DNA of 64,000 nucleotides from an uncultured Gammaproteobacteria bacterium (GTDB lineage: Bacteria > Patescibacteriota > Patescibacteriia > UBA9934): assembly GCA_964599455.1 (NCBI GenBank), contig CAZREA010000004.1, positions 1,628 through 65,627 on the forward strand, written 5' to 3'. A model generated the notes under the pieces. That model did no database searches and was not told the DNA's origin. It was given only the letters and a program-made list of their open reading frames with translations. Of the stretch, positions 4,201-63,206 are shown piece after piece; the stretch's first letter is position 1; the number at the start of each line of letters is the position of its first letter. The position numbers and the translations under genes are program-made.

Positions 4201-4273
4201 GTGACCTCCGTTTGCATGATGTGTCCGCCGCTCCGCGCGCGCGAAGCGGCGGAGTCGACGTGCAAGCGTCAAC

Positions 4274-4306
4274 AAAAAAAACCGCCGAAGTTCGCGGCGG
4301 TTTTTT
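4274..4306. terminator. bidirectional intrinsic terminator
   Basis: A-run, stem CCGCCGaagttcGCGGCGG, T-run. Confidence 0.6.
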
Positions 4307-4458
4307 GTCAGATGCTTGCTTTAGACAAGCGAAAAGATGACGGAACCACGCGAACGCAAAAGAGAGACATGCCAATAGCCATGCTGCGTTGCGTGAGTGG
4401 TTTGCGTCGAAAATGCGTTCATAGTTCTTTCCTTAGAATATCTTGTTCCAAACCTTTG

Positions 4459-5799
4459 TCAAGGAATGATCTCAACGGGCGTTCCGATTTCCGCCCAATT
4501 ATAGACTTTCTCAGCATCAAGTAAGCTAGTATTCACGCAGCCGTGACTCATACGATGACCAAAATTATTGTGCCAGTAGGCGGAGTGAATGTAGTAATGA
4601 TTGCGGAAGCGAAGATTCCATTTGACGTTGGGAAGGGAATAGTTATTGCGATTACCTGCACCGTAGTACCAGGAGTAGTCATGGACGGGAAGTTTCGCGA
4701 GTACGGCTGTTTTTCCGAGCGGCGTCGGAAACGAGTACGTTCCACTTGAAATGAGGAATGAAAAAGCAGGAATGCCGTACACATATGCTCTGAGCCGTTG
4801 CTCAGAAACATCAACACGAATATATTTCGCAGAAACATCAGCAAAAAGCGGTGTGACCGCATTGCCTGCCACGATAAGATTGCCATTGTTATCCGATCCA
4901 CTTGCAAGGGCAAGGAATGCATCACTCGCGGATGAAAAAGTTGTCATGGTGCCATTGGTCAAAGAGATGCTTGCTGTTGTAGAGAATGCTGGACTACCCG
5001 AAATACTCTCTTTTTGTTGCAAAATCATGGCGCGAGGCTGTGTTGCGGCGCTACTCAGTGTTGTTTCAGAAATCTTTTTTAAAGAGCCATCTTCAGTATC
5101 AAAGATAGTGCGAACCGGTACATCATAGGCAGCGGGAGCAGTGATAATCTCCAATTCTGCATCGGCATCCGCATTTCCCACATTCACCAGCAAACCGGTT
5201 ACTTTTTCTTTACTTCCTACAAAGTTTTCATCAATAATTTTTCCTGTTGCCGAAAAAACTTTCAAATGCGGACCACCTCCAGGGCCTGACCCGGTGATAA
5301 TTTCTGCTTTGCCATCGCCGGTTACATCACCACAGGCAATGTTCACGCCACCGGTAAAACCTGCGTCATAGGCAAAAAATCCCCCAATGGCCTCGCCCAT
5401 GCTGGTGAATATCCGAACATGTGGTCCGCCACCAAAACCGGCGCCCGTAACAATTTCTTGTTGTCCATCGCCATCAAGGTCGCAGGCGGCAACATAGACG
5501 CCTCCGGTAAAGGCTTCGGTATAGGCGGAAAAAGAACCAATCAGCGTGCCATCTTGGCGAAAAACGCCAACCGTGGGTTTTGATCCGTATCCAGCTCCGA
5601 CAAGAATTTCGGCAATGCCATCATCACCTAAATCGCCAAGAGCGACGGAACCAATGGTGATATCGGTAAAGGGCGTGAATGAACTAATAAGCGTACTATC
5701 GCGATAGAGTTTGACGGTGGCGTCTTGGGCAAAGGTGCTCTTGGGGAAAAGGATGCATCCAGCAAGAAGAAGGAAGGAGAGGAGGTGACGAGAGGACAT
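4459..5799 (-). CDS. secreted FG-GAP repeat protein with C-terminal L,D-transpeptidase (YkuD) domain
   Basis: Signal peptide; repeated 'GDxxGDGxxEI' FG-GAP units; catalytic 'SHGCVN' motif. Confidence 0.7.
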   Translation of the reverse strand: MSSRHLLSFLLLAGCILFPKSTFAQDATVKLYRDSTLISSFTPFTDITIGSVALGDLGDDGIAEILVGAGYGSKPTVGVFRQDGTLIGSFSAYTEAFTGGVYVAACDLDGDGQQEIVTGAGFGGGPHVRIFTSMGEAIGGFFAYDAGFTGGVNIACGDVTGDGKAEIITGSGPGGGPHLKVFSATGKIIDENFVGSKEKVTGLLVNVGNADADAELEIITAPAAYDVPVRTIFDTEDGSLKKISETTLSSAATQPRAMILQQKESISGSPAFSTTASISLTNGTMTTFSSASDAFLALASGSDNNGNLIVAGNAVTPLFADVSAKYIRVDVSEQRLRAYVYGIPAFSFLISSGTYSFPTPLGKTAVLAKLPVHDYSWYYGAGNRNNYSLPNVKWNLRFRNHYYIHSAYWHNNFGHRMSHGCVNTSLLDAEKVYNWAEIGTPVEIIP

Positions 5800-6349: not shown

Positions 6350-6425
6350 GGGCCCTTAGCTTAGTTGGTAGAGCGCCGCATTTGCAATGCGGAGGTCATC
6401 GGTTCAAATCCGATAGGGTCCACCA
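6350..6425 (+). tRNA. tRNA-Ala (anticodon UGC), CCA encoded
   Basis: Cloverleaf with G3:U70, anticodon loop tTGCa, T-arm GGTTCAAATCC, 3' CCA. Confidence 0.9.
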
Positions 6426-6426
6426 C

Positions 6427-6549
6427 AAAACCGTTTTATTTGGGCCATTTTGGACTCCTCATCGCTGCGGTCGACTCACCGTACGTCATTGTACGGCTCG
6501 TCGATCCTCGCTCTTCGGAACCAAACTGTCTCCAAATAAAACGGTTTTG
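6427..6549. repeat. R1 hairpin repeat, copy B, abutting tRNA-Ala 3' end
   Basis: Perfect 18-bp terminal inverted repeat CAAAACCGTTTTATTTGG/CCAAATAAAACGGTTTTG; core ~90% identical to copy A. Confidence 0.75.
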
Positions 6550-6597
6550 TTTTCAGTACTTTTCTATCCGTTCGCCGTTACGTATCATTGAGGAGAA

Positions 6598-20991: not shown

Positions 20992-21576
20992 TCAGATCTC
21001 GTCGGGACGATCGATTCCGAACTTGGCCTGTACGGCCCTGACCCGTTCGGTGAGCTTGATGATCTCCTCTCGGCTGGAGAAGCCGTCGATCGTGAAGTCG
21101 ATGTCCTCTTCCAACAGGAGCTTGAGCATCCTGATCTCGCGCTCGAGCCCGTGGGCCAAGAGCTGTGCCATCGGGTCTTCCGGAGTATTCACCAGGGAGT
21201 CGAGCATGCTCTCAACCTTCTCCTTGTAGGTGAGCGGGACGGAGGACGAGCGCCTGCGTCGTCGCAAGAGTTTGCTCAAGCGGTGCAGCAGGTTCCAGGG
21301 GATGGCGTCCGCCAGGAAGAGGAGAAGCTTCAGCCTGCGGGACTTTGCGTAGGCTACTCCTATCACACCGTGGTTGACCTCGAACAGGCCGACGTCCTCG
21401 TCGTGACTGTTCCAGACGATGTAGATGCCGTCTGGCAGCGCGTCGGTGTCCGCGGTGCTGATGATGACCCCGTTGTGCTGGATATCTACGTTGAAGTTCC
21501 CGTGTTCGCCCCGCCGCCGTACGCGATAGGAGCCAGGGTTCAGGACTCTTCGGCGATCACCTGTTCTCTCGTTCAT
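20992..21576 (-). CDS. GC-rich cassette gene A1 (194 aa); shares N-terminal domain with A2 and A3
   Basis: GAGGAG SD before internal ATG; 'SYRVRRRG..LPDGIYIVW..GLFEVNHGV' N-domain; GC-rich. Confidence 0.55.
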   Translation of the reverse strand: MNERTGDRRRVLNPGSYRVRRRGEHGNFNVDIQHNGVIISTADTDALPDGIYIVWNSHDEDVGLFEVNHGVIGVAYAKSRRLKLLLFLADAIPWNLLHRLSKLLRRRRRSSSVPLTYKEKVESMLDSLVNTPEDPMAQLLAHGLEREIRMLKLLLEEDIDFTIDGFSSREEIIKLTERVRAVQAKFGIDRPDEI

Positions 21577-21757
21577 GGCACTCTCCTCAATGTACGGGTG
21601 ATTGGTGGTACTTGACGACAGTTCTTTGTCGTCACCTTTTATCTTCCTTTTTGTAAAGAAAGGCAAAAGGTGACGTTGAAGCAACGGAAGATAGTAGAAA
21701 AGACCGGAGATTTTGTAAAGGAGAGAGGAAATCAAGAAGAGGAGTCCCATAAAAACA

Positions 21758-21795
21758 GTTCGCGGTCGATCCCAAGAGGAATCGACCGCGTGAAC
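21758..21795 (-). terminator. GC-rich intrinsic terminator H2 after A2
   Basis: GTTCGCGGTCGAT-loop-ATCGACCGCGtGAAC, T-run on minus strand. Confidence 0.6.
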
Positions 21796-21807
21796 GAGAG
21801 GTTTCTT

Positions 21808-22269
21808 CTACGAAGGTGCGTGCGCAGACTCGTTGCCGAGCTCGGCCTCATGGTTGGGGGAGCGCAGAAGGGTGTCGAACGGACTTCTGGTGGACAGTGC
21901 GAGCTCCTCGAACACGCCTTGGCCCTCCTCGTCGTCCTCCACCACTCGCAGGGACGGCCGGGGTCTGCCGACCACTTGGAGTGCTGGCCCTTGGCCTTTG
22001 CCACCCTGGATGAGTCGTGGTGGGTAGCTCGACGTCGAGCGCACCTCCTCGTTGCTCTTGGCGTTGCGCGGTACACCTCCGACCACCGCGAACGTCCCGA
22101 CGACCACCTGGTCCAAATAGAGGACCTCGTAATCTCCGTCGAGAAGCGGGCGCGAGCACTGTGTGACCCGCCCACTCCTGTACTCGATCGTGACGCGAGC
22201 GATTCCTTTGCTCTCGTCTCCCCGCGGCCGTACTCTGTAGACTCCTGACTTCTCAGCTTCTGTAGTCAA
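21808..22269 (-). CDS. GC-rich cassette gene A2 (153 aa), TTG start with GGAGG SD
   Basis: 'VYRVRPRG..PLLDGDYEVLYLD..GTFAVVGGVP' N-domain shared with A1 and A3. Confidence 0.55.
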   Translation of the reverse strand: MTTEAEKSGVYRVRPRGDESKGIARVTIEYRSGRVTQCSRPLLDGDYEVLYLDQVVVGTFAVVGGVPRNAKSNEEVRSTSSYPPRLIQGGKGQGPALQVVGRPRPSLRVVEDDEEGQGVFEELALSTRSPFDTLLRSPNHEAELGNESAHAPS

Positions 22270-42873: not shown

Positions 42874-43368
42874 GCTTGGCGCGCCGGACGGCTATGCGTG
42901 GTTTACCACGTAAGGAAAGTCCGAACACCCTTTGTGCAGCAATGCACAATGAGCAAAGGCGTTGTTAACGACAACCAGGAAGAGATCGCAAGATCAGAGC
43001 CTAGGGAAAGTCTCATCTCGACGCAAGAACGGATGAGGTCAAAATCGGCGGGAAACGGCCGACAATGACGCAACAGAGACATTCAAACCTCCTTCGATTT
43101 GTTCATGGAGGCAAAAGGTGAAACGTGATGGGGACGCAAGTTTCCCATCTCCCTGCATGGTGACATGCAGGGTGGCAAACCCGCCTTGGTGCAAGAGCAA
43201 GATTGGTAGCTCGCTTGCCCCCAACGGAGCTCCGACCCACTTTGCGCAAGCTAGGTGGGGAGGAGCGAAGTGGGGCTTAGGTCACTGGCAACAGTGATCA
43301 CAGAGAAATGGCCGTCTCCCCCGAGCGTAAGCGAGGGGCCAGACAAAATTCGGCTTACAGGCGCGTCC
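42874..43368 (+). ncRNA. rnpB: RNase P RNA
   Basis: 'GGAAAGTCCGAACAC' (CR-I) and 'ACAAAATTCGGCTTACAG' (CR-IV/V); promoter and terminator flank it. Confidence 0.75.
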
Positions 43369-43409
43369 AAACAAAAACACACCTTCGTCAGCGAAGGTGT
43401 GTTTTTGTT
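43369..43409. terminator. bidirectional intrinsic terminator after rnpB
   Basis: AAACAAAAACACACCTTCGtcagCGAAGGTGTGTTTTTGTT. Confidence 0.7.
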
Positions 43410-45096: not shown

Positions 45097-45159
45097 GTTC
45101 ACCTCATTTTGATTGAGTGAAATTTAGGATACGAAGCAATCAATCAGTATAATAAAAAT

Positions 45160-45400
45160 GCTGCTTCGTCAACGGAAGTGGATGATTTTTGCAAAAAGAG
45201 AAAAAAGAGGTAAACAGTACGCGTTTAGCGCTTGCCTTGGCGGGCGTTAAGCTGGACGGAGTCTGGAGAGGTCCAATACCGTTTCGGCGGGATTCTTGTT
45301 GGATTTTTCTGGCGGACAGGGAATTTCTTCCTGTTCGTTTTAACACGGACTCCGTCCTTCATCTTTCTCGGGCCACTCTTCGGAGCGGCCCTTCTTATTT
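45160..45400 (+). ncRNA. candidate small structured RNA (~240 nt), class unknown
   Basis: TTAGGA-N18-TATAAT upstream; 8-bp stem ACGGAGTC..GACTCCGT encloses ~95 nt; ends GGGCCACTCttcgGAGCGGCCC plus T-run. Confidence 0.25.
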
Positions 45401-48792: not shown

Positions 48793-49045
48793 AGGACTTT
48801 CGAAAGAACGTGATTTGTCGATAAAAACGGCTAACCGTTTTTATCGCTATGTTTCGAGATTCGAAAATTCTGATCTGAAATAATAAGTTCAAAATTTCAA
48901 AACGAATTTGAGATTTTAAATTTAGTATTTAGAGCTGTAGAAAAAAGAAAGGGAAGGTGTTTGGAATAAGAATGGTGAGAGCGAAGATATGGGATCTCTT
49001 TATTTTTTCACTGACTAGGCGCCGGCGATAGCGAACGGAAGGTAG

Positions 49046-49170
49046 CAGAACCTTTTAAAATGATTCAGGCCTAGGAGGCTACACGACGCAGGCCGAGACG
49101 TACTGCAGACGTACGTTGAGGCCGAGTCGAGTGTCGCCGACAACGGCATGGAGCATTTTAAAAGGTTCTG
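49046..49170. repeat. R2 repeat copy a, enclosed by a perfect 17-bp inverted repeat, abutting tRNA-Leu 3' end
   Basis: CAGAACCTTTTAAAATG / CATTTTAAAAGGTTCTG flank a core ~85% identical to R2b with ACGTAC-N7-GTACGT. Confidence 0.65.
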
Positions 49171-49172
49171 TC

Positions 49173-49259
49173 TGGTGCGGATGGAGGGACTTGAACCCTC
49201 AAGGTGTCACCACCACAGGCTTCTGAGACCTGCGCGTATGCCAATTCCGCCACATCCGC
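49173..49259 (-). tRNA. tRNA-Leu (anticodon CAG), long variable arm, CCA encoded
   Basis: Anticodon loop ctCAGaa, long extra arm, T-arm GGTTCAAGTCC. Confidence 0.85.
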
Positions 49260-55920: not shown

Positions 55921-55997
55921 GGGCCTGTAGCTCAGTTGGTTAGAGCTCCGAGCTTATACCTCGGTGGTCCCTGGTTCGAATCCAGGCAGGCCTACCA
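55921..55997 (+). tRNA. tRNA-Ile (anticodon UAU), CCA encoded
   Basis: Anticodon stem CCGAG/CTCGG with loop ctTATac; Ile-type D-arm TAGCTCAGTTGGTTAGAGC; T-arm GGTTCGAATCC. Confidence 0.7.
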
Positions 55998-56000
55998 TTG

Positions 56001-56178
56001 AAAGCCTTTTTATTCGGGCTATTTTCTGCCTTCATCACTGCGGTCAACTCACCGTACAGAAGAAGTACGGCTTTCTCCTTCGCTAAAGCTTCGGGGGAAT
56101 GACCCCGTAGCTTACAGCGGAGGGTCATCGTTGATCCTCGTTCTTCAGGACAGGAATTATCTCCAAATAAAAAGGTTT
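56001..56178. repeat. R1 hairpin repeat, copy C (longer variant), abutting tRNA-Ile 3' end
   Basis: Same terminal inverted repeats and 'CATCACTGCGGTCAACTCACCGTA' core plus ~55-nt internal insertion. Confidence 0.65.
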
Positions 56179-56179
56179 T

Positions 56180-56362
56180 TTGCAGAACACTCCTTATTCT
56201 ATGTTTTTCCTCCCCATTCTGTGTTTAGCTCTTGCCGGTTTTTTAGCCTGGTTTGGCCATCATGAACAAAATACCGTGTTCTATATTTTGGCGTTTACGT
56301 TATTAGTAGCGGCGTTAGGGACTGCGCTTTTGAGTTATTTTGCGCTCTCTATTATCAACTAG
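56180..56362 (+). CDS. small membrane protein (60 aa, TTG start)
   Basis: Two TM helices. Confidence 0.35.
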   Translation: MQNTPYSMFFLPILCLALAGFLAWFGHHEQNTVFYILAFTLLVAALGTALLSYFALSIIN

Positions 56363-56902: not shown

Positions 56903-58204
56903 TTATTCTCTTTGCAAAACGAGTCGATGGGCAAATTGCAATGCATCCTCATGGGATGAAAGCGCGCCTTTTAGTTGTTCATTACGCACATGCTGTAAAA
57001 GCAGACGCAAGGCTGGTCCTGGGGCAATGCCAAGAGGGAGGAGATCGCGTCCACGTAACAGTTTCGGCATCAGCGCCTGTTTCGGCAGACGATCACGAAC
57101 AATGGCTGCACGTTCGATATTGCGTAGCAATTGTCGTTGCGGCGAGATGAGGGATGTTGCGTAGGTCAGGGCCAGTGCTTGTGCACCGATATCGCCACCT
57201 ACGATTTTTTCTGCCTGGGCAAGCGACCACAGATCAGGATTTTCTTCACTTATGCGTCGAGTTTTTTGCAATATGTCTTGCGTTGCCTGTTCATCAAACG
57301 ACAAATAAGGATGCGATGCTCCGGCCGCATGAAAACGACGCGCATGGGTTTGGAACGCTCCTTCTCCTTCAGGATGCGCGGCAAAAAGTCCGGCAGCAGT
57401 AAGCGATGCACTCAACGGCGCGTTGGCATAGCGTTGGCGAATGTAGTCATCATGCAGTGCGGAAAGAATTTGTTCTTCTGGATGACCATTTTGCACGTGC
57501 GGCAAAAGTACCGGAAGTAACCCTGCCTCATCAAAAAGTTTCCAGGCATTTTTTGGGTGATGATGGAGTGCGAGAAGTTTTTCAGTAAAAAGCTGATGCC
57601 GCGGTACCTTGTAGACGGCGGTTCCATGCTCTTCATGTGTCACTCGCGCATGAAGATGTTTGGCGTAGGTTTGTATCGCTGTCCACGTTTCCGAATCAAT
57701 AGTGAGATGAAACTGTATACTTAATCGTATTGCACGCAGTAATTGCAAGGGGCGCAAACGAAATTGCGTTGCGGGAGATTCTATGGTGCGGAGCGTTCCT
57801 TTTTGCAAGGCAGAGATGCCATCAAAAGGATCGTGTAACTGGCCGTTACGTACCGAATAGCCCATGGCATTCATGGTGAAGTCAGCTTTTGTCAGTGCAT
57901 CATGCAAGGGATCGGGAATAGAAGATTCTTTTAAAGCAAGAAGCGTAATTTCGAACATCGTGGGAGCAGGATGTTGTGCGAGCCACGCATTTGTACGAAG
58001 AACATTCGGCGTCAGAATAAAAACGTGCACATGTGCGGGCAATCGACCTAAGAGTGCATCACGCACAGTTCCGCCAAATAAAACGATATCCGATGCGGGA
58101 AACGCCTGGAGATAGCGAAACATCCAGGAGCACGCAGGCGTATCGGCAACAAATGCGCCAACGCGTTGTGCAGGAGGAAAAGGTGATCGCCAAGCAAGGG
58201 ACAT
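56903..58204 (-). CDS. cca: CCA-adding enzyme / poly(A) polymerase family tRNA nucleotidyltransferase (internal start)
   Basis: 'FGGTVRDALLG' class II nucleotidyltransferase motif; the track ORF's N-terminal extension is antisense to the GC island. Confidence 0.7.
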   Translation of the reverse strand: MSLAWRSPFPPAQRVGAFVADTPACSWMFRYLQAFPASDIVLFGGTVRDALLGRLPAHVHVFILTPNVLRTNAWLAQHPAPTMFEITLLALKESSIPDPLHDALTKADFTMNAMGYSVRNGQLHDPFDGISALQKGTLRTIESPATQFRLRPLQLLRAIRLSIQFHLTIDSETWTAIQTYAKHLHARVTHEEHGTAVYKVPRHQLFTEKLLALHHHPKNAWKLFDEAGLLPVLLPHVQNGHPEEQILSALHDDYIRQRYANAPLSASLTAAGLFAAHPEGEGAFQTHARRFHAAGASHPYLSFDEQATQDILQKTRRISEENPDLWSLAQAEKIVGGDIGAQALALTYATSLISPQRQLLRNIERAAIVRDRLPKQALMPKLLRGRDLLPLGIAPGPALRLLLQHVRNEQLKGALSSHEDALQFAHRLVLQRE

Positions 58205-58316
58205 GACAAGATTATAGCAGAACCATCCTTTTATTGACGTTTGCTCGATAGTTTGTTGAACTATCCCCTCGGACTTCCTCGAGCCTTTCGGTGTTGGCCA
58301 ACCGAACGGAGGCGCC

Positions 58317-58805
58317 ATGCGCACCCTTACTCTCATCGCGTTCTTCCTCCTTGCCTCCCGCGCATTTGCGCAGGAGTCCACTTTGCCCGCTCCAACCAGC
58401 GTCGTCATCATGGCGCAAGAGTCGAATGATCGTGTGCGGAATGCGGTGGTGTCGAATGCCATCGTCGTCAACTGGACCACCTCGCCGCCCACGATCTCGA
58501 TCTTCGTCGAGTCCGTGGACACCGGGAGACACATCCAGACGCTCAGCCTGTCCGGCGAACGCAACGGCGCGTTCTGGATCTTCCGCGTCCCCGTCCAAGC
58601 CAGCGTGTCCTCCCCGTTCGTCGAGGTCATCCTCGGGTCCGGGAACGTGTTCGCGGTGACCATCGACGAGGCGGGCGAACGTCAGTTGGTCGCCGTCAAC
58701 CAGGTAGCCGAGGTCTACTTCCCGTTCAACGCGAACGGGGATGAGTACTGCGTTTCCCTGAGCAAGCCGATCGCCTGCATGGGGAGCAATTGCCCGCCGA
58801 TCTGA
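58317..58805 (+). CDS. GC-cassette secreted hypothetical protein (162 aa, GGAGG SD)
   Basis: Signal peptide 'MRTLTLIAFFLLASRAFA'; GC-rich. Confidence 0.5.
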   Translation: MRTLTLIAFFLLASRAFAQESTLPAPTSVVIMAQESNDRVRNAVVSNAIVVNWTTSPPTISIFVESVDTGRHIQTLSLSGERNGAFWIFRVPVQASVSSPFVEVILGSGNVFAVTIDEAGERQLVAVNQVAEVYFPFNANGDEYCVSLSKPIACMGSNCPPI

Positions 58806-58828
58806 GCCACGTCACCACCTGACCCAGC

Positions 58829-58876
58829 AAAACATCACCCCCGTGCGGTGATCCTGCTGCGCGCGGGTGGTGTTTT
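58829..58876 (+). terminator. GC-rich hairpin H8 after 58317..58805
   Basis: AAAACATCACCCCCG..CGCGGGTGGTGTTTT. Confidence 0.45.
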
Positions 58877-59004
58877 GTTTAGGGGATAAAGGTAGAATAT
58901 ATTCTTGTTTACCGCGTATTTTTCTCCCTTCATCCTCACTTTCATAAAATTAAATAATACCTCTAATATCAGCCAAATATTCACCCTTTCATCAAGAGAA
59001 ATAC

Positions 59005-59033
59005 TTGACGAAAGGGTAAAAATATGATATAAA
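59005..59033 (+). promoter_or_regulatory. sigma70-like promoter TTGACG-N17-TATAAA
   Basis: Consensus-like hexamers, 17-nt spacer. Confidence 0.5.
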
Positions 59034-59039
59034 ATGTGC

Positions 59040-59702
59040 ATGATACGGAGCTGATCCATCACGGATCAAGCCGGATCAGTGAAAGGAGGTGAAACAACTT
59101 CTTTTCCGGGGAGGCTCTCAAGCTCCCCAATGCCCCAGACGCCCCTGCTAAGCGGGGGCACGATCAAGATGCGCCAGGAGTCGAGAGGAGTCGCCAAGAC
59201 TCTCGCGTCAACGGCAACGTTGATTCAACATTGGCAAAGCCGGACGAATGCGAGTAGGGGAGGTTAGCCGACCTCCCGTGGTGGAGTAATCCATCGCCCC
59301 TAAGGCTAGAGCCTCTCTCTCCTAATCGGGAGGATGATGGCTCGACTCGCAGCTTGCTGCGAGCCTTGTGGGAGTAAAACGTCGATGAGGGGTTGTTATG
59401 CTGAGCCCCTCAACCTTTCAGTGCATTAGGCGCTGAAAGAGGCCAGAATCAGTAAAAAATCTCACAGGCTCTCACGATCCGAAAGGATGAGCCAATGAGA
59501 TGTTTCGCACGGTGACGTGTGAACGGCGGCAACAACTTCCTTCGTGAAAGGAAGTCAAGGCCAAACTCTGTCGGATAAAGCGTCCGCAACTGACAGAGCA
59601 ATGTGATTCCCCTCGACTGCATTGAGTGCGAGGGTGAGTCACGCGGATTAGTCTTCTAGACCATCGTGTATGCGGCAACGCAGACGATGGTCGCTTTTTT
59701 TT
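59040..59702 (+). ncRNA. candidate large structured RNA (~650 nt), class unknown
   Basis: Bounded by the promoter and terminator GACCATCGT..ACGATGGTC plus T8; at least ten local GC-rich hairpins with GNRA/UUCG-type loops; no credible ORF. Confidence 0.3.
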
Positions 59703-59766
59703 ATCCCTTGAAACCGATGAACGCGCTTTATGTTACTATCTTGGGGTATTTTGATTTGATTTTTCT

Positions 59767-60630
59767 ATGTCAAAACAGCATCTTCACGCGCTCGGCGTCC
59801 TCGCCCTTTGTTCGGCGGGTTGCGAAAGACCGCCAGAATCTTTTCCTTTAACTGATGATCAGAAAGATGAAGTCGTTGCACATGCTGAAAAGATAGAGAG
59901 AACTGCGCCATTTATGGTTGCCCTCATGAAGTATTCATATGAGGATTATCAATTTGGCAAACGAAAAAAAGAGGGTATAGATGAGGCGGAAGAGGATCTT
60001 TACGCTTCTTTGGATGACTTATGGAGTTTTATCGAGCGTGATCGTGTATATGGTTTTCATGGAGAGAATTTTCGTGATGGTACCATCGCCGCATCTATAC
60101 AGCGGCGTATTTTAAACTTCCGTGAATATATAACGATTGATGTGGATGGGTTCGAAGCGATTACGAGTTCAATGCTATTCCACGAAACCGGACATCTCGA
60201 AACTTTTCATCACAAAAAATCTCTTGAAGATGCGATTTTAGCGTTTAATGCGGAAAATGAAGCCTCATACGCCAATGACCCTGACATCATTCGCCTAATC
60301 GCTGATCAACAAGATTTTCCCTATCTACTGACGGTTTTTGGAGAATTTGCCGATGTGTTATTAGACAGCATTGAATCTCAAGTAGAATCTAGAGATCTTT
60401 CCGATCTTTCTCTTGAAAAAGAAAGAGACATTTGGCTCGAGAATGAGACTTCGCGGTTGACCGAAATGAAAGCTCCGGCTATGGATGCATTGGGAATTAC
60501 GGAAGAGGAATTGAAGGAGTCGTTGCGAGAATCCAAGATGTTTGATTACAAGAAAGAATTGTACAACGAGCGGAAAAGAGAATTGGGAGAAAAAATACGA
60601 AATGATGCACCAAAACCTGCAAAACGTTAG
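59767..60630 (+). CDS. lipoprotein with HExxH zinc-metallopeptidase motif
   Basis: Lipobox 'LALCSAGC'; 'LFHETGHLETFHH'. Confidence 0.5.
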   Translation: MSKQHLHALGVLALCSAGCERPPESFPLTDDQKDEVVAHAEKIERTAPFMVALMKYSYEDYQFGKRKKEGIDEAEEDLYASLDDLWSFIERDRVYGFHGENFRDGTIAASIQRRILNFREYITIDVDGFEAITSSMLFHETGHLETFHHKKSLEDAILAFNAENEASYANDPDIIRLIADQQDFPYLLTVFGEFADVLLDSIESQVESRDLSDLSLEKERDIWLENETSRLTEMKAPAMDALGITEEELKESLRESKMFDYKKELYNERKRELGEKIRNDAPKPAKR

Positions 60631-60671
60631 AAAGAGGCGCTATAAGGATTCTTCTGGCGAATACAAGAAGT

Positions 60672-61424
60672 TTACTGAACAGCTTCGTAGCGCCGTTTCA
60701 ATGCTTCGATCTGTTCATTCGATCCGCAGACGACCGACAAAAATATCCTTGCTTCATGCAGTGGGGGTTCGGAATGCACTTTCGCATTCTCATCTCCTAC
60801 GAGATAGATCGTTGCGTGATGTTCTTTAACCCGTTCAGTTTCGTGCACGATCGCATCGAGCTCTCTTCTTAAACGAGTGTCTTCTTTCTCAATTTCTTCG
60901 GGATCTGCATCCTCTCTCGCATAATTTTCAGCAATCTCGCGAGAAAGTTGTTGAAACTTTTCTTTATCTTTTATCTCGGCAAAACGGGAGGGAGGGCCTT
61001 TTACTGCAAAAACTAATTTGTACGTTTTTTCTTCAGATGAAAAATATTTTCCATCAACGTGCCATCTCGGAAGATCAAAAGTATCATCGGGCAATGTAAC
61101 TCTCACCATAACCCATGCAGCTTCTTGATGAAGTTTTTTTCGCACATCTTCAGCTATTCGTGCGATAAAACGAGAAAGAGTGATGATGCTTTCTTTGCGG
61201 TTACCTTCCAGCTGAGAGAGATGAGCGATGAGATTTTCTAAAAGTTCATGATCTATTGGTCCGTAATGATTAAATTGAGGAAGCTCTTTTTGAATAATGA
61301 TTTCCCGTATGCTCTCCTGTTCTTCTGGAGTGAATCCGACATCAAACGACACGATACCCCTTTCTTTGAGGATCTCCATGTTGTTTTTTAATTGCTCTCG
61401 TCCTTCTTTTTCTGAATAGTGCAT
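60672..61424 (-). CDS. hypothetical protein (250 aa)
   Basis: ORF only; lower GC than neighbours. Confidence 0.4.
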   Translation of the reverse strand: MHYSEKEGREQLKNNMEILKERGIVSFDVGFTPEEQESIREIIIQKELPQFNHYGPIDHELLENLIAHLSQLEGNRKESIITLSRFIARIAEDVRKKLHQEAAWVMVRVTLPDDTFDLPRWHVDGKYFSSEEKTYKLVFAVKGPPSRFAEIKDKEKFQQLSREIAENYAREDADPEEIEKEDTRLRRELDAIVHETERVKEHHATIYLVGDENAKVHSEPPLHEARIFLSVVCGSNEQIEALKRRYEAVQ

Positions 61425-61556
61425 ATTGCTTCATCTTAACGAAAGTCGTTCTATACAATCAAATTTCATAAAGAAGCTGCTCTAAAGAGTTTCTTTATCC
61501 ACCTATTTCTTTTTGTAAAAAAAGCAAAATGATTTACTCTGGTAGAAGAATATTTA

Positions 61557-62045
61557 ATGGCATCGTTCAATATGAAACTAGTATCAGAAACGTATATGGG
61601 ACCAGATGGGAAGACAAACTTTTTGGGTGAGTTGGCAGTTCTTGAAGCGTATGAATATCCAAGGCGTGCGATGAAGGATGGTAAATGGGTCTACGATGCA
61701 CGAAGAGATAGCGATGATAATAATATGTTCAGGGCGGCTACGTTGGCTGAGCAACTGTTGGCACGAGGTGATTATCAAAATGCTCTTCGGGCGGCGCAGG
61801 TAGAGGTGCGTTTTGGATGCGCGATTCTTGATCAATCGGGACAGCACGCTTATCAAATCGCCGAAATGGCGCTTGCGAATAATGATTGGGAAGGTTTTCG
61901 CGCGGCACTTGAAGCTGCTCGTGGCATGGGTGCGTGGGCGTATGATCCTGCACGAACAATACGAGAAATGGGTATAGAGCGAGCACGAACAACCGGAAAT
62001 ACTGAAATGCTTGCAAAGTTAGAAGATGAAGCTGCAAGAGAGTAA
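61557..62045 (+). CDS. hypothetical protein (162 aa)
   Basis: ORF only. Confidence 0.4.
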   Translation: MASFNMKLVSETYMGPDGKTNFLGELAVLEAYEYPRRAMKDGKWVYDARRDSDDNNMFRAATLAEQLLARGDYQNALRAAQVEVRFGCAILDQSGQHAYQIAEMALANNDWEGFRAALEAARGMGAWAYDPARTIREMGIERARTTGNTEMLAKLEDEAARE

Positions 62046-62084
62046 TAAAAATACCGAGTCTATACTCGGTATTTTTATGAAAGA

Positions 62085-63206
62085 TTATGAAATGTTGTTC
62101 AAGGATTGCACTATCTCCTCTCGAATATTTGCTAATGATTTCTCTTTTTCAAAACTACACATTACCAAGTCCCGTGTTCCTTCCATTTTTGTTGCTGCAC
62201 AGAGCTGGCGAGCATCAAGCGGACGATTGACGGCAACCAAAGCACGATTTGCCTGCTCATCTTCAAAAAGAAGTACCACGATTTTGGCCTCAGCCGTTGA
62301 TTGTAAAAGCTCTTGAGCGATTTCTTCCAAATGATCAGGCGTTGTGTGCGTTTTGAAAAAATCATCGCGACCAATGGTGCTTGTAAAGATGCCTGGCGCA
62401 ACTTCTTCAATTCGTGAAAAAACTGTTCCCCACAAGCGCATTGCGTCGACTGATCTTGTGCGATACAGGTTTTCCATGATGTGCATTCGTTCAGCTCCTC
62501 GCTCGATGAGTTTCGCTGAAGTGGCAAGTGTTGCCGAGGTGACGCGATCGCTGCGAAAGTTTTTGGTTTTGGCAATCATGCCGGTAAGCAGACAGGTAGC
62601 CACATGATTGGCGACCGATTCGGGTGAAAGCGACAGAAGGAGATTGGCACACGCTTCGCTGACCGAACCTGCTTGTGTATCAATACTATTCCAACGCCCG
62701 TATTCTTCATTGGAAGGGTGCCAATCAATGTTGAGAATCGGCATGGTGCTTAAGCTATCGGCATGATCACGGAAAAGAGAGCCAAGACTACTTAATTCGC
62801 GAGTGCCAAGGGTAATGAGCAAATCGTGCGCAGCAACACCGTGTTGCAAGCTGATGTTGTTGGCGGTGAGGGTACCTTCTTCTGGCGTTAACACAAGTGA
62901 AGTAAAGCCATTGTGTTCCATGCGTTCAACGGAACGTAATTTCATGCCCTGCGGCAAACTCACAGCCAAAGAGCGCAAATGCACGAGCGACGAAACAAGT
63001 GAGAGTTGTTGAATGAGAAATTGCAGCGACGAGGGTATGTTTTTTTCGCAGGCAATGAGTGTTTGTTTGCCGAGCGATGAAAGTACATGAGCTAAAGCGC
63101 ATGCTGCCGCAAAGCTATCGGCATCAGTATTGGCTGGTAAGGCAATAAGTGGTCGACGGGTGTCGAGCAGAATATCGTGAATTTGGGTAGAAAGATCTTT
63201 AGCCAC
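62085..63206 (-). CDS. DHH-family phosphoesterase (NrnA-like)
   Basis: N-term 'ANTDADSFAAACAL' DHH-type metal site; DHHA1-like C-terminus; GTG start. Confidence 0.5.
   Translation of the reverse strand: MAKDLSTQIHDILLDTRRPLIALPANTDADSFAAACALAHVLSSLGKQTLIACEKNIPSSLQFLIQQLSLVSSLVHLRSLAVSLPQGMKLRSVERMEHNGFTSLVLTPEEGTLTANNISLQHGVAAHDLLITLGTRELSSLGSLFRDHADSLSTMPILNIDWHPSNEEYGRWNSIDTQAGSVSEACANLLLSLSPESVANHVATCLLTGMIAKTKNFRSDRVTSATLATSAKLIERGAERMHIMENLYRTRSVDAMRLWGTVFSRIEEVAPGIFTSTIGRDDFFKTHTTPDHLEEIAQELLQSTAEAKIVVLLFEDEQANRALVAVNRPLDARQLCAATKMEGTRDLVMCSFEKEKSLANIREEIVQSLNNIS

Follow-up and report, generated by a model that had tools for sequence, protein, structure and literature searches.

We describe a unit on the plus strand of a Patescibacteria genome in which a promoter, a non-coding stretch of ~655 nt and an intrinsic terminator follow one another, and whose product we read, with a probability of roughly 0.55, as a stand-alone, island-borne, large structured RNA that would act in trans and belongs to an undescribed type. 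As a feature of the sequence the unit is real and striking, and it makes a credible orphan RNA gene outside every described family; its status as a functional class is unproven, a single member being known, from sequence alone. Bacteria have few large structured RNAs without a known function, the examples being OLE, ROOL, GOLLD and raiA, and each of these gave unexpected biology, such as membrane ribonucleoproteins or RNA nanocages. Patescibacteria live as obligate symbionts and have tiny genomes, in which a horizontally gained RNA gene of 650 nt would be costly to keep; such a gene is therefore probably important, if the reading is true. With ~660 nt and many GNRA loops, it would also lend itself to chemical probing and cryo-EM. 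Should the RNA turn out to be a singleton remnant, it would serve as a caution that function does not follow from thermodynamic stability, a promoter and a terminator unless comparative or expression evidence is added.

The unit lies in a window of 64,000 nt (the whole stretch of DNA that was analysed), whose gene content, including RNase J, a class I IleRS, a T4SS-pilin-like protein and many orphan genes, fits Patescibacteria (CPR). At its upstream end is a sigma-70-type promoter at 59005-59033 (+), consisting of TTGACG (59005-59010), a 17-nt spacer and TATAAA (59028-59033), which confirms the near-consensus promoter proposed in an earlier, sequence-only reading of this DNA; a TG at 59025-59026 makes it an extended -10 promoter. 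Only nine sites in the 64-kb window, counting both strands (128 kb), match the consensus in at least five of six positions in both hexamers, and the RNA promoter is the only one among them with an extended -10 TG. The tRNA-Val promoter of the window (56899, minus strand; TTGACG-N17-TATAGT) has the identical -35 hexamer and spacing, and the promoter of the RNase P RNA gene reads TTGATT-N16-TATACT. Both the quality of the RNA promoter and its likeness to the promoters of these two RNA genes argue for a stand-alone gene, whose transcription would start at about 59040. The -35 hexamer is overlapped by an imperfect palindrome at 58974-59026 (arms of 23 nt, 83% complementary, around a centre of 7 nt) that could be an operator. 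A CYTTTCAT motif inside the palindrome has further copies at 58937-58944 and 62076-62083, and a 14-nt inverted repeat, CTTTCATAAAATTA / TATTTTTATGAAAG, is found at 58939-58952 and 62070-62083, where it encloses most of the insertion described below, from the RNA promoter to the far end. The repeat and the motif copies could be due to chance in AT-rich DNA or could represent element ends or operator sites.

The downstream end of the unit is an intrinsic terminator at 59659-59702 (+), as strong as the earlier description held it to be. Its 13-bp hairpin (a stem of 9+4 bp) consists of the outer arms GACCAUCGU/ACGAUGGUC at 59659-59667/59684-59692 and an inner stem UGCG/CGCA capped by a GCAA loop, and it is followed by a U8 tract at 59695-59702, where transcription would stop. 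The terminator comes directly after the last structural domain of the RNA. The predicted non-coding transcript thus extends over 59040-59702 (+), with ~660 nt, 54% G+C and 18 hairpins in the minimum free energy (MFE) structure. There is no open reading frame longer than 70 aa on either strand of the RNA region, none of the small open reading frames inside the RNA has a usable ribosome-binding site spacing, and independent gene prediction on L004, a Logan contig of this very organism, placed no gene in the region, so that the earlier count of ~650 nt without a credible reading frame holds for the ~655 nt delimited here.

The predicted plus-strand fold has an MFE of -296.4 kcal/mol, which corresponds to a z-score of -12.35 relative to 20 dinucleotide shuffles and of -9.3 relative to 200 shuffles, compared with only -3.8 for the minus strand. 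The plus-strand MFE structure contains 18 hairpins (17 short ones preceding the terminator hairpin), whereas the shuffled sequences form 13.0 +/- 2.1. Tetraloops cap ten of the hairpins, and five of these loops are of the GNRA type (GCAA, GUAA, GAAA, GUGA and the GCAA of the terminator), in contrast to 0.30 +/- 0.61 GNRA tetraloops in the shuffles (with a maximum of 3 in 200 shuffles) and to none on the minus strand. Most helices have a pair probability above 0.9. The difference between the z-scores of the two strands, the excess of GNRA loops and the high pair probabilities all support the interpretation as a stand-alone RNA gene. The hairpins listed in the sequence-only reading are all present, most of them among these high-probability helices, and the two GNRA loops that it named (GTGA and GAAA) are among the five. 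The UUCG loop that it reported is an error, the CUUCC..GGAAG hairpin being ACUUCCUU/AAGGAAGU with a CGUGA loop, and its first hairpin is to be corrected to GGGGAG-GCUCUCAAG-CUCCCC.

When the whole window was scanned in 200-nt bins, the four consecutive ones over 59001-59800 had plus-strand z-scores of -3.7, -7.0, -4.5 and -3.4, the background being -0.56 +/- 1.8, and the sole other extended structured stretch is the RNase P RNA. The other strong bins that were folded consist of single long hairpins rather than of many short ones. Further very stable structures, dominated by long hairpins and with z-scores of -8 to -11.5 in 200-nt bins, are located at 4270-4460 (-), 21560-21820 (-) and 45115-45400 (+). 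Because very stable intergenic hairpins occur elsewhere in the genome, a high folding score alone is not rare here, which counts against the interpretation as a stand-alone gene; the unusual feature is a stretch of 650 nt made of many different short hairpins.

At the 5' end of the predicted structure, the strand GGAGCUGAUCC at 59047-59057 (+) may form a long-range closing helix with 59645-59656. The pair probability of this helix is only ~0.3, a further point against the stand-alone gene, and the UGAUCC within its 5' strand has, as read from the sequence, alternative partners in GGAUCA at 59063-59068 or 59072-59077. Next comes a 10-bp hairpin, GAAAGGAGGU / ACUUCUUUUC with a GAAACA loop, at 59081-59106 (+), which carries the only AAGGAGGUGA of the window on either strand, a Shine-Dalgarno-like purine run; both this run and the GAAAGGAGGUGA that contains it are sequestered in the stem. 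Two G+C-rich hairpins at 59108-59159 (+), GGGGAG..CUCCCC and GCCCCUGC-UAA-GCGGGGGC, have pair probabilities of 0.90-0.99. The central multi-branch domain at 59243-59383 (+) includes two hairpins that abut each other, 59258-59277 (with the loop AGCC) and 59278-59297 (with the loop GUAA), together with a three-way junction whose loops are AAUC and CUUG (59298-59372); its inner helices have pair probabilities of 0.54-1.00 and its outer closing helices of 0.37-0.58. Between this domain and the 3' domain are two hairpins at 59386-59439 (+), UGAGGGGUU..AGCCCCUCA and CUUUCAGUGC-AUUAG-GCGCUGAAAG, with pair probabilities of 0.97-0.99.

The 3' domain is predicted to fold into five consecutive hairpins within 59459-59642 (+), namely 59459-59501 (GAAA loop and UCACG bulge), 59504-59523 (GUGA loop), 59528-59562 (CGUGA loop), 59566-59598 and 59603-59642. 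The UCACG bulge at 59472-59476 is complementary to the CGUGA loop at 59543-59547, and the two may engage in tertiary pairing; other candidate tertiary contacts are those of the 5' end with a GUUAUGC loop and of CAAUG with CAUUG. No significant internal duplication was detected within the RNA.

None of the 4227 models of Rfam 15 matches the region 58996-59702 at the gathering threshold, and when the 1-kb region was searched permissively (E<=10), no credible family emerged within the RNA: the matches inside it are chance similarities to microRNA-type models, mostly on the minus strand, and to one sRNA model, with E-values of 2.4-7.2. The Rfam check that had been proposed along with the sequence-only reading therefore returned no known family. 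That no reading frame and no Rfam match were found, together with the position of the terminator right after the last domain, favours the stand-alone gene. Likewise, the earlier exclusion of tmRNA, SRP RNA, 6S RNA and RNase P RNA agrees with the negative results of Rfam and ARAGORN. The RNA is rejected as a tmRNA since it has no GTTCRA T-loop, no tag-like reading frame and no Rfam tmRNA match, and ARAGORN reported no tmRNA, standard or permuted, in the window. It is rejected as a group II intron without a reading frame since no Rfam intron model matches at E<=10 and its bounds are a promoter and a terminator rather than exons. Neither SRP, 6S, RNase P, intron and HEARO models nor the covariance models of OLE (RF01071), ROOL and GOLLD have a match in the RNA. 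Among the neighbours, no gene is intron-encoded or specifies a reverse transcriptase, IscB/TnpB or an OapA-like protein; Oap-type neighbours were judged from Pfam and NCBIfam family searches of the neighbouring proteins, in which no family was found.

The likeness to OLE, ROOL and GOLLD that was suggested earlier applies to size and richness in hairpins and does not extend to class, given that no covariance model matches and no second member was found. OLE of Bacillota is likewise a stand-alone non-coding transcript of ~600 nt with many short hairpins and adjoining envelope-protein genes; however, OLE is conserved across many species of that other phylum and adjoins oapA/oapB/oapC, whereas the RNA described here has neither a detected relative nor oap-like neighbours. 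With ROOL and GOLLD it shares the size range (580-800 nt), an abundance of hairpins and tetraloops and a location on DNA that, in this case, was probably acquired horizontally. ROOL and GOLLD are large ornate RNAs that are often borne by phages or prophages next to tRNA genes and that form RNA-only cages (PMC12286853). In contrast to this frequent prophage or tRNA-adjacent context, the RNA lies in an island without PHROG matches, 2.2-3 kb away from tRNA genes. A comparison within the genome is provided by the RNase P RNA, which is located elsewhere in the window, as had been noted before, at 42876-43373 (+). The two RNAs share a sigma-70-type promoter, a G+C-enriched structured transcript and an intrinsic terminator, and the folding z-scores per window of the RNase P RNA are similar to or weaker than those of the 650-nt RNA. 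The difference is that RNase P RNA occurs universally and fits its own model while the 650-nt RNA matches none. The match of this class A RNase P RNA covers 498 nt relative to the 367 positions of the model and scores 111 bits against a threshold of 100, which marks it as an expanded and divergent RNase P RNA.

Searches for relatives of the RNA gave only the RNA itself. With nhmmer, the window and 13 fetched loci contained no copy other than the RNA and the one on L004, which is 100% identical and belongs to a contig from the same organism. A blastn search (word size 11) of GenBank phages and PLSDB plasmids produced nothing beyond a 23-nt chance match, and a pattern of the loops alone had one chance match and no relative in IMG/VR. 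The search for metagenome homologues that was suggested earlier was carried out with seeds: the RNA was translated in each frame, with stops replaced by X, and the translations were converted to six 24-nt wobble-degenerate seeds per scan; four scans of viral sequences, two of metagenomes and one of genome contigs found no relative. These scans depend on ~16-18 consecutive conserved bases and so would miss distant homologues. Since no homologue was found, there is no signal of covariation or purifying selection, which is a point against the stand-alone gene. The literature on large or non-coding RNAs in CPR/Patescibacteria was searched as well, and nothing relevant was found.

The genomic context points to a derived location. 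The RNA lies in a lineage-specific insertion of 3.9 kb (58205-62084) between the CCA-enzyme gene at 56903-58204 (-) and the DHH gene at 62085-63206 (-). The CCA enzyme as a single query had no match in the genome contig collection. Four related lineages were identified whose CCA enzymes are 42-47% identical to that of the window; by pairwise identity, one of them is sister to the window organism and the other three form an outgroup clade. In all four the DHH orthologue lies right beside the CCA-enzyme gene, only ~18-46 nt away and with no insertion, and the RNA is absent; sequence identity to the DHH of the window is 60% and 39% for these orthologues. Apart from the RNA and the lipoprotein gene discussed below, the insertion contains a 162-aa reading frame with a signal peptide at 58317-58805 (+), a 250-aa reading frame at 60672-61424 (-) and another 162-aa reading frame at 61557-62045. 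The first of these has 62% G+C and a GC3 of 0.85, compared with 0.37-0.49 in the other window genes checked, which clearly indicates that it was acquired recently from a donor of high G+C. It is overlapped by a long spurious antisense reading frame at 56903-58663. The island proteins have no significant match in Pfam, PHROG, PADLOC, NCBIfam, PDB, plasmids or viral contigs, and no mobility, replication or phage proteins were found among them. The insertion is thus derived and of mosaic composition, and it was probably acquired horizontally.

The gene that follows the RNA, at 59767-60630 (+), encodes a lipoprotein with an HExxH..H..D motif. It appeared as an orphan in a word-indexed search, but a full HMMER scan revealed a small family of ~18 representatives in which the lipobox Cys, H139, E140, H149 and D183 are invariant and H143 is present in at least 90%; its similarity to zinc proteases of the snapalysin type is weak and not significant (E 0.25). 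The gene has the same orientation as the RNA, its ATG is 65 nt past the U8 tract, and there is no convincing sigma-70 promoter in the 65-nt gap, where the best candidate is TTGAAA-N20-TACTAT. This arrangement weighs against the stand-alone gene and in favour of an unlikely alternative, in which the RNA serves the lipoprotein gene as a long 5' leader specific to this lineage. Such a leader would share its promoter with the gene and attenuate expression by its terminator, such that a ligand, protein or temperature signal sensed by the large fold leads to read-through. Attenuators such as T-boxes, riboswitches and ribosomal-protein leaders indeed have the same order of promoter, structured RNA, intrinsic terminator and co-oriented gene, and the alternative pairings of UGAUCC, with either copy of GGAUCA or with the 3' end, suggest conformational switching. 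However, no RNA of this kind is present upstream of the lipoprotein gene in any of four homologues (L010-L013), where nhmmer and inspection of the gaps, of 23, 154, 25 and 161 nt, detected no such element. With all four lacking it, a conserved leader of the lipoprotein family is ruled out, and the idea that the region might be a leader of the downstream gene, raised in the sequence-only reading, finds no support in this form. Furthermore, the RNA matches none of the riboswitch, T-box or leader families of Rfam, and inspection revealed no antiterminator complementary to the 5' arm of the terminator nearby. Typical leaders are 2-4 times shorter than this RNA, and to our knowledge all known attenuating leaders fall far below 650 nt. 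The homologues without a long upstream RNA and the lack of an obvious antiterminator partner favour the stand-alone gene.

The same insertion also invites the interpretation, to which we assign a rather low probability, that the RNA is a functionless or decaying foreign fragment, transcribed or not, such as what is left of a structured RNA or other element of a donor genome. Recent mosaic insertions of orphan genes are places where non-functional or selfish sequence gathers, which counts against the stand-alone gene, and the composition of the adjacent reading frame, the island proteins without family matches and the failure to find an RNA homologue in any collection searched are all in keeping with such an origin. 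Decay, on the other hand, would erode helix stability and GNRA enrichment, both of which are intact, as are the near-consensus, host-style promoter and the terminator, and at E<=10 the fragment bears no likeness to rRNA, introns or other Rfam families. It is quite improbable that the region functions as DNA, for example as an origin of replication or transfer, a cluster of recombination sites or an array of hairpin repeats. The position in an inserted island, the palindrome at 58974-59026 and the 14-nt inverted repeat that brackets most of the island would suit a DNA element; yet folding is strongly strand-asymmetric and GNRA loops occur on one strand, both of which indicate RNA, given that G-U pairs matter. 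In addition, each hairpin differs from the others, so that they do not constitute a repeat family, promoter and terminator flank the region precisely, and the island encodes no mobility, replication or phage proteins. The chance that the RNA is a very divergent member of a known family (tmRNA, SRP, 6S, group I/II intron, OLE, ROOL, GOLLD or HEARO/omega RNA) missed by the models appears slight indeed. The divergence of the RNase P RNA illustrates that known RNAs can be divergent here, and the 5' GGAGCUGAUCC loosely resembles the 5' end of tmRNA. Against this stand the absence of a credible match to any of the 4227 Rfam families even at E<=10, the lack of a tag reading frame and T-loop along with the ARAGORN result, and neighbours devoid of the proteins that accompany introns, OLE or omega RNAs.

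Under the preferred reading, that of a stand-alone trans-acting RNA, the lineage would have gained the RNA gene as part of the 3.9-kb insertion, and transcription from about 59040 to the U8 tract would yield a discrete RNA. Its hairpins would pack into a 5' domain, the central multi-branch domain and the 3' domain of five hairpins, held together by docking of GNRA loops into helices, by UCACG/CGUGA pairing and possibly by the closing helix between the 5' and 3' ends. In the most speculative step, by analogy with OLE, ROOL and GOLLD, the compact, GNRA-stapled RNA might act in trans as a stable scaffold or as a component of a ribonucleoprotein, a role that we consider more likely than action as a riboswitch or as an sRNA that works by base pairing. 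The lipoprotein gene may be expressed through a low level of read-through at the terminator. A bolder version, possible though doubtful, is that a new class of ornate RNAs, large and GNRA-rich, exists on mobile Patescibacteria DNA and that the RNA is its first known member, forming a compact particle (of RNA only or a ribonucleoprotein) and having relatives too divergent for seed-based searches.

Several other elements of the window deserve mention. The start codons of its genes are mostly not preceded by a Shine-Dalgarno sequence, and pyrimidine-rich runs resembling CCUCC/CUUCC occur before several starts, e.g., 41457 (-), 63206 (-), 38696 (-), 384 (+) and 17550 (+). The GAAAGGAGGU run of the RNA is complementary to such leaders, for example to ACCUCCUUUC upstream of 41457. 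Homologous long hairpins of ~115-185 nt start at the encoded CCA of three tRNA genes, those of tRNA-Ala-UGC, tRNA-Ile-UAU and tRNA-Leu-CAG; these hairpins are located at 6423-6550 (+), 55995-56185 (+) and 49040-49175 (-) in the window, and they share the motifs CUCACCGUAC..GUACGG and AAAUAAAA.GGUUUU. No Rfam match was found for them. The same hairpin occurs after tRNA-Ile in a relative whose CCA enzyme is ~43% identical (L002, 2520-2725 (-)), with stem changes that are seemingly compensatory, and it may serve the lineage as a tRNA trailer, a terminator or a processing element not described before. The tRNA-Ile gene with the anticodon UAU, at 55921-55997 (+), an uncommon bacterial way to decode AUA, is syntenic in three relatives (L002, L003 and L007), where it lies beside tRNA-Val-GAC.
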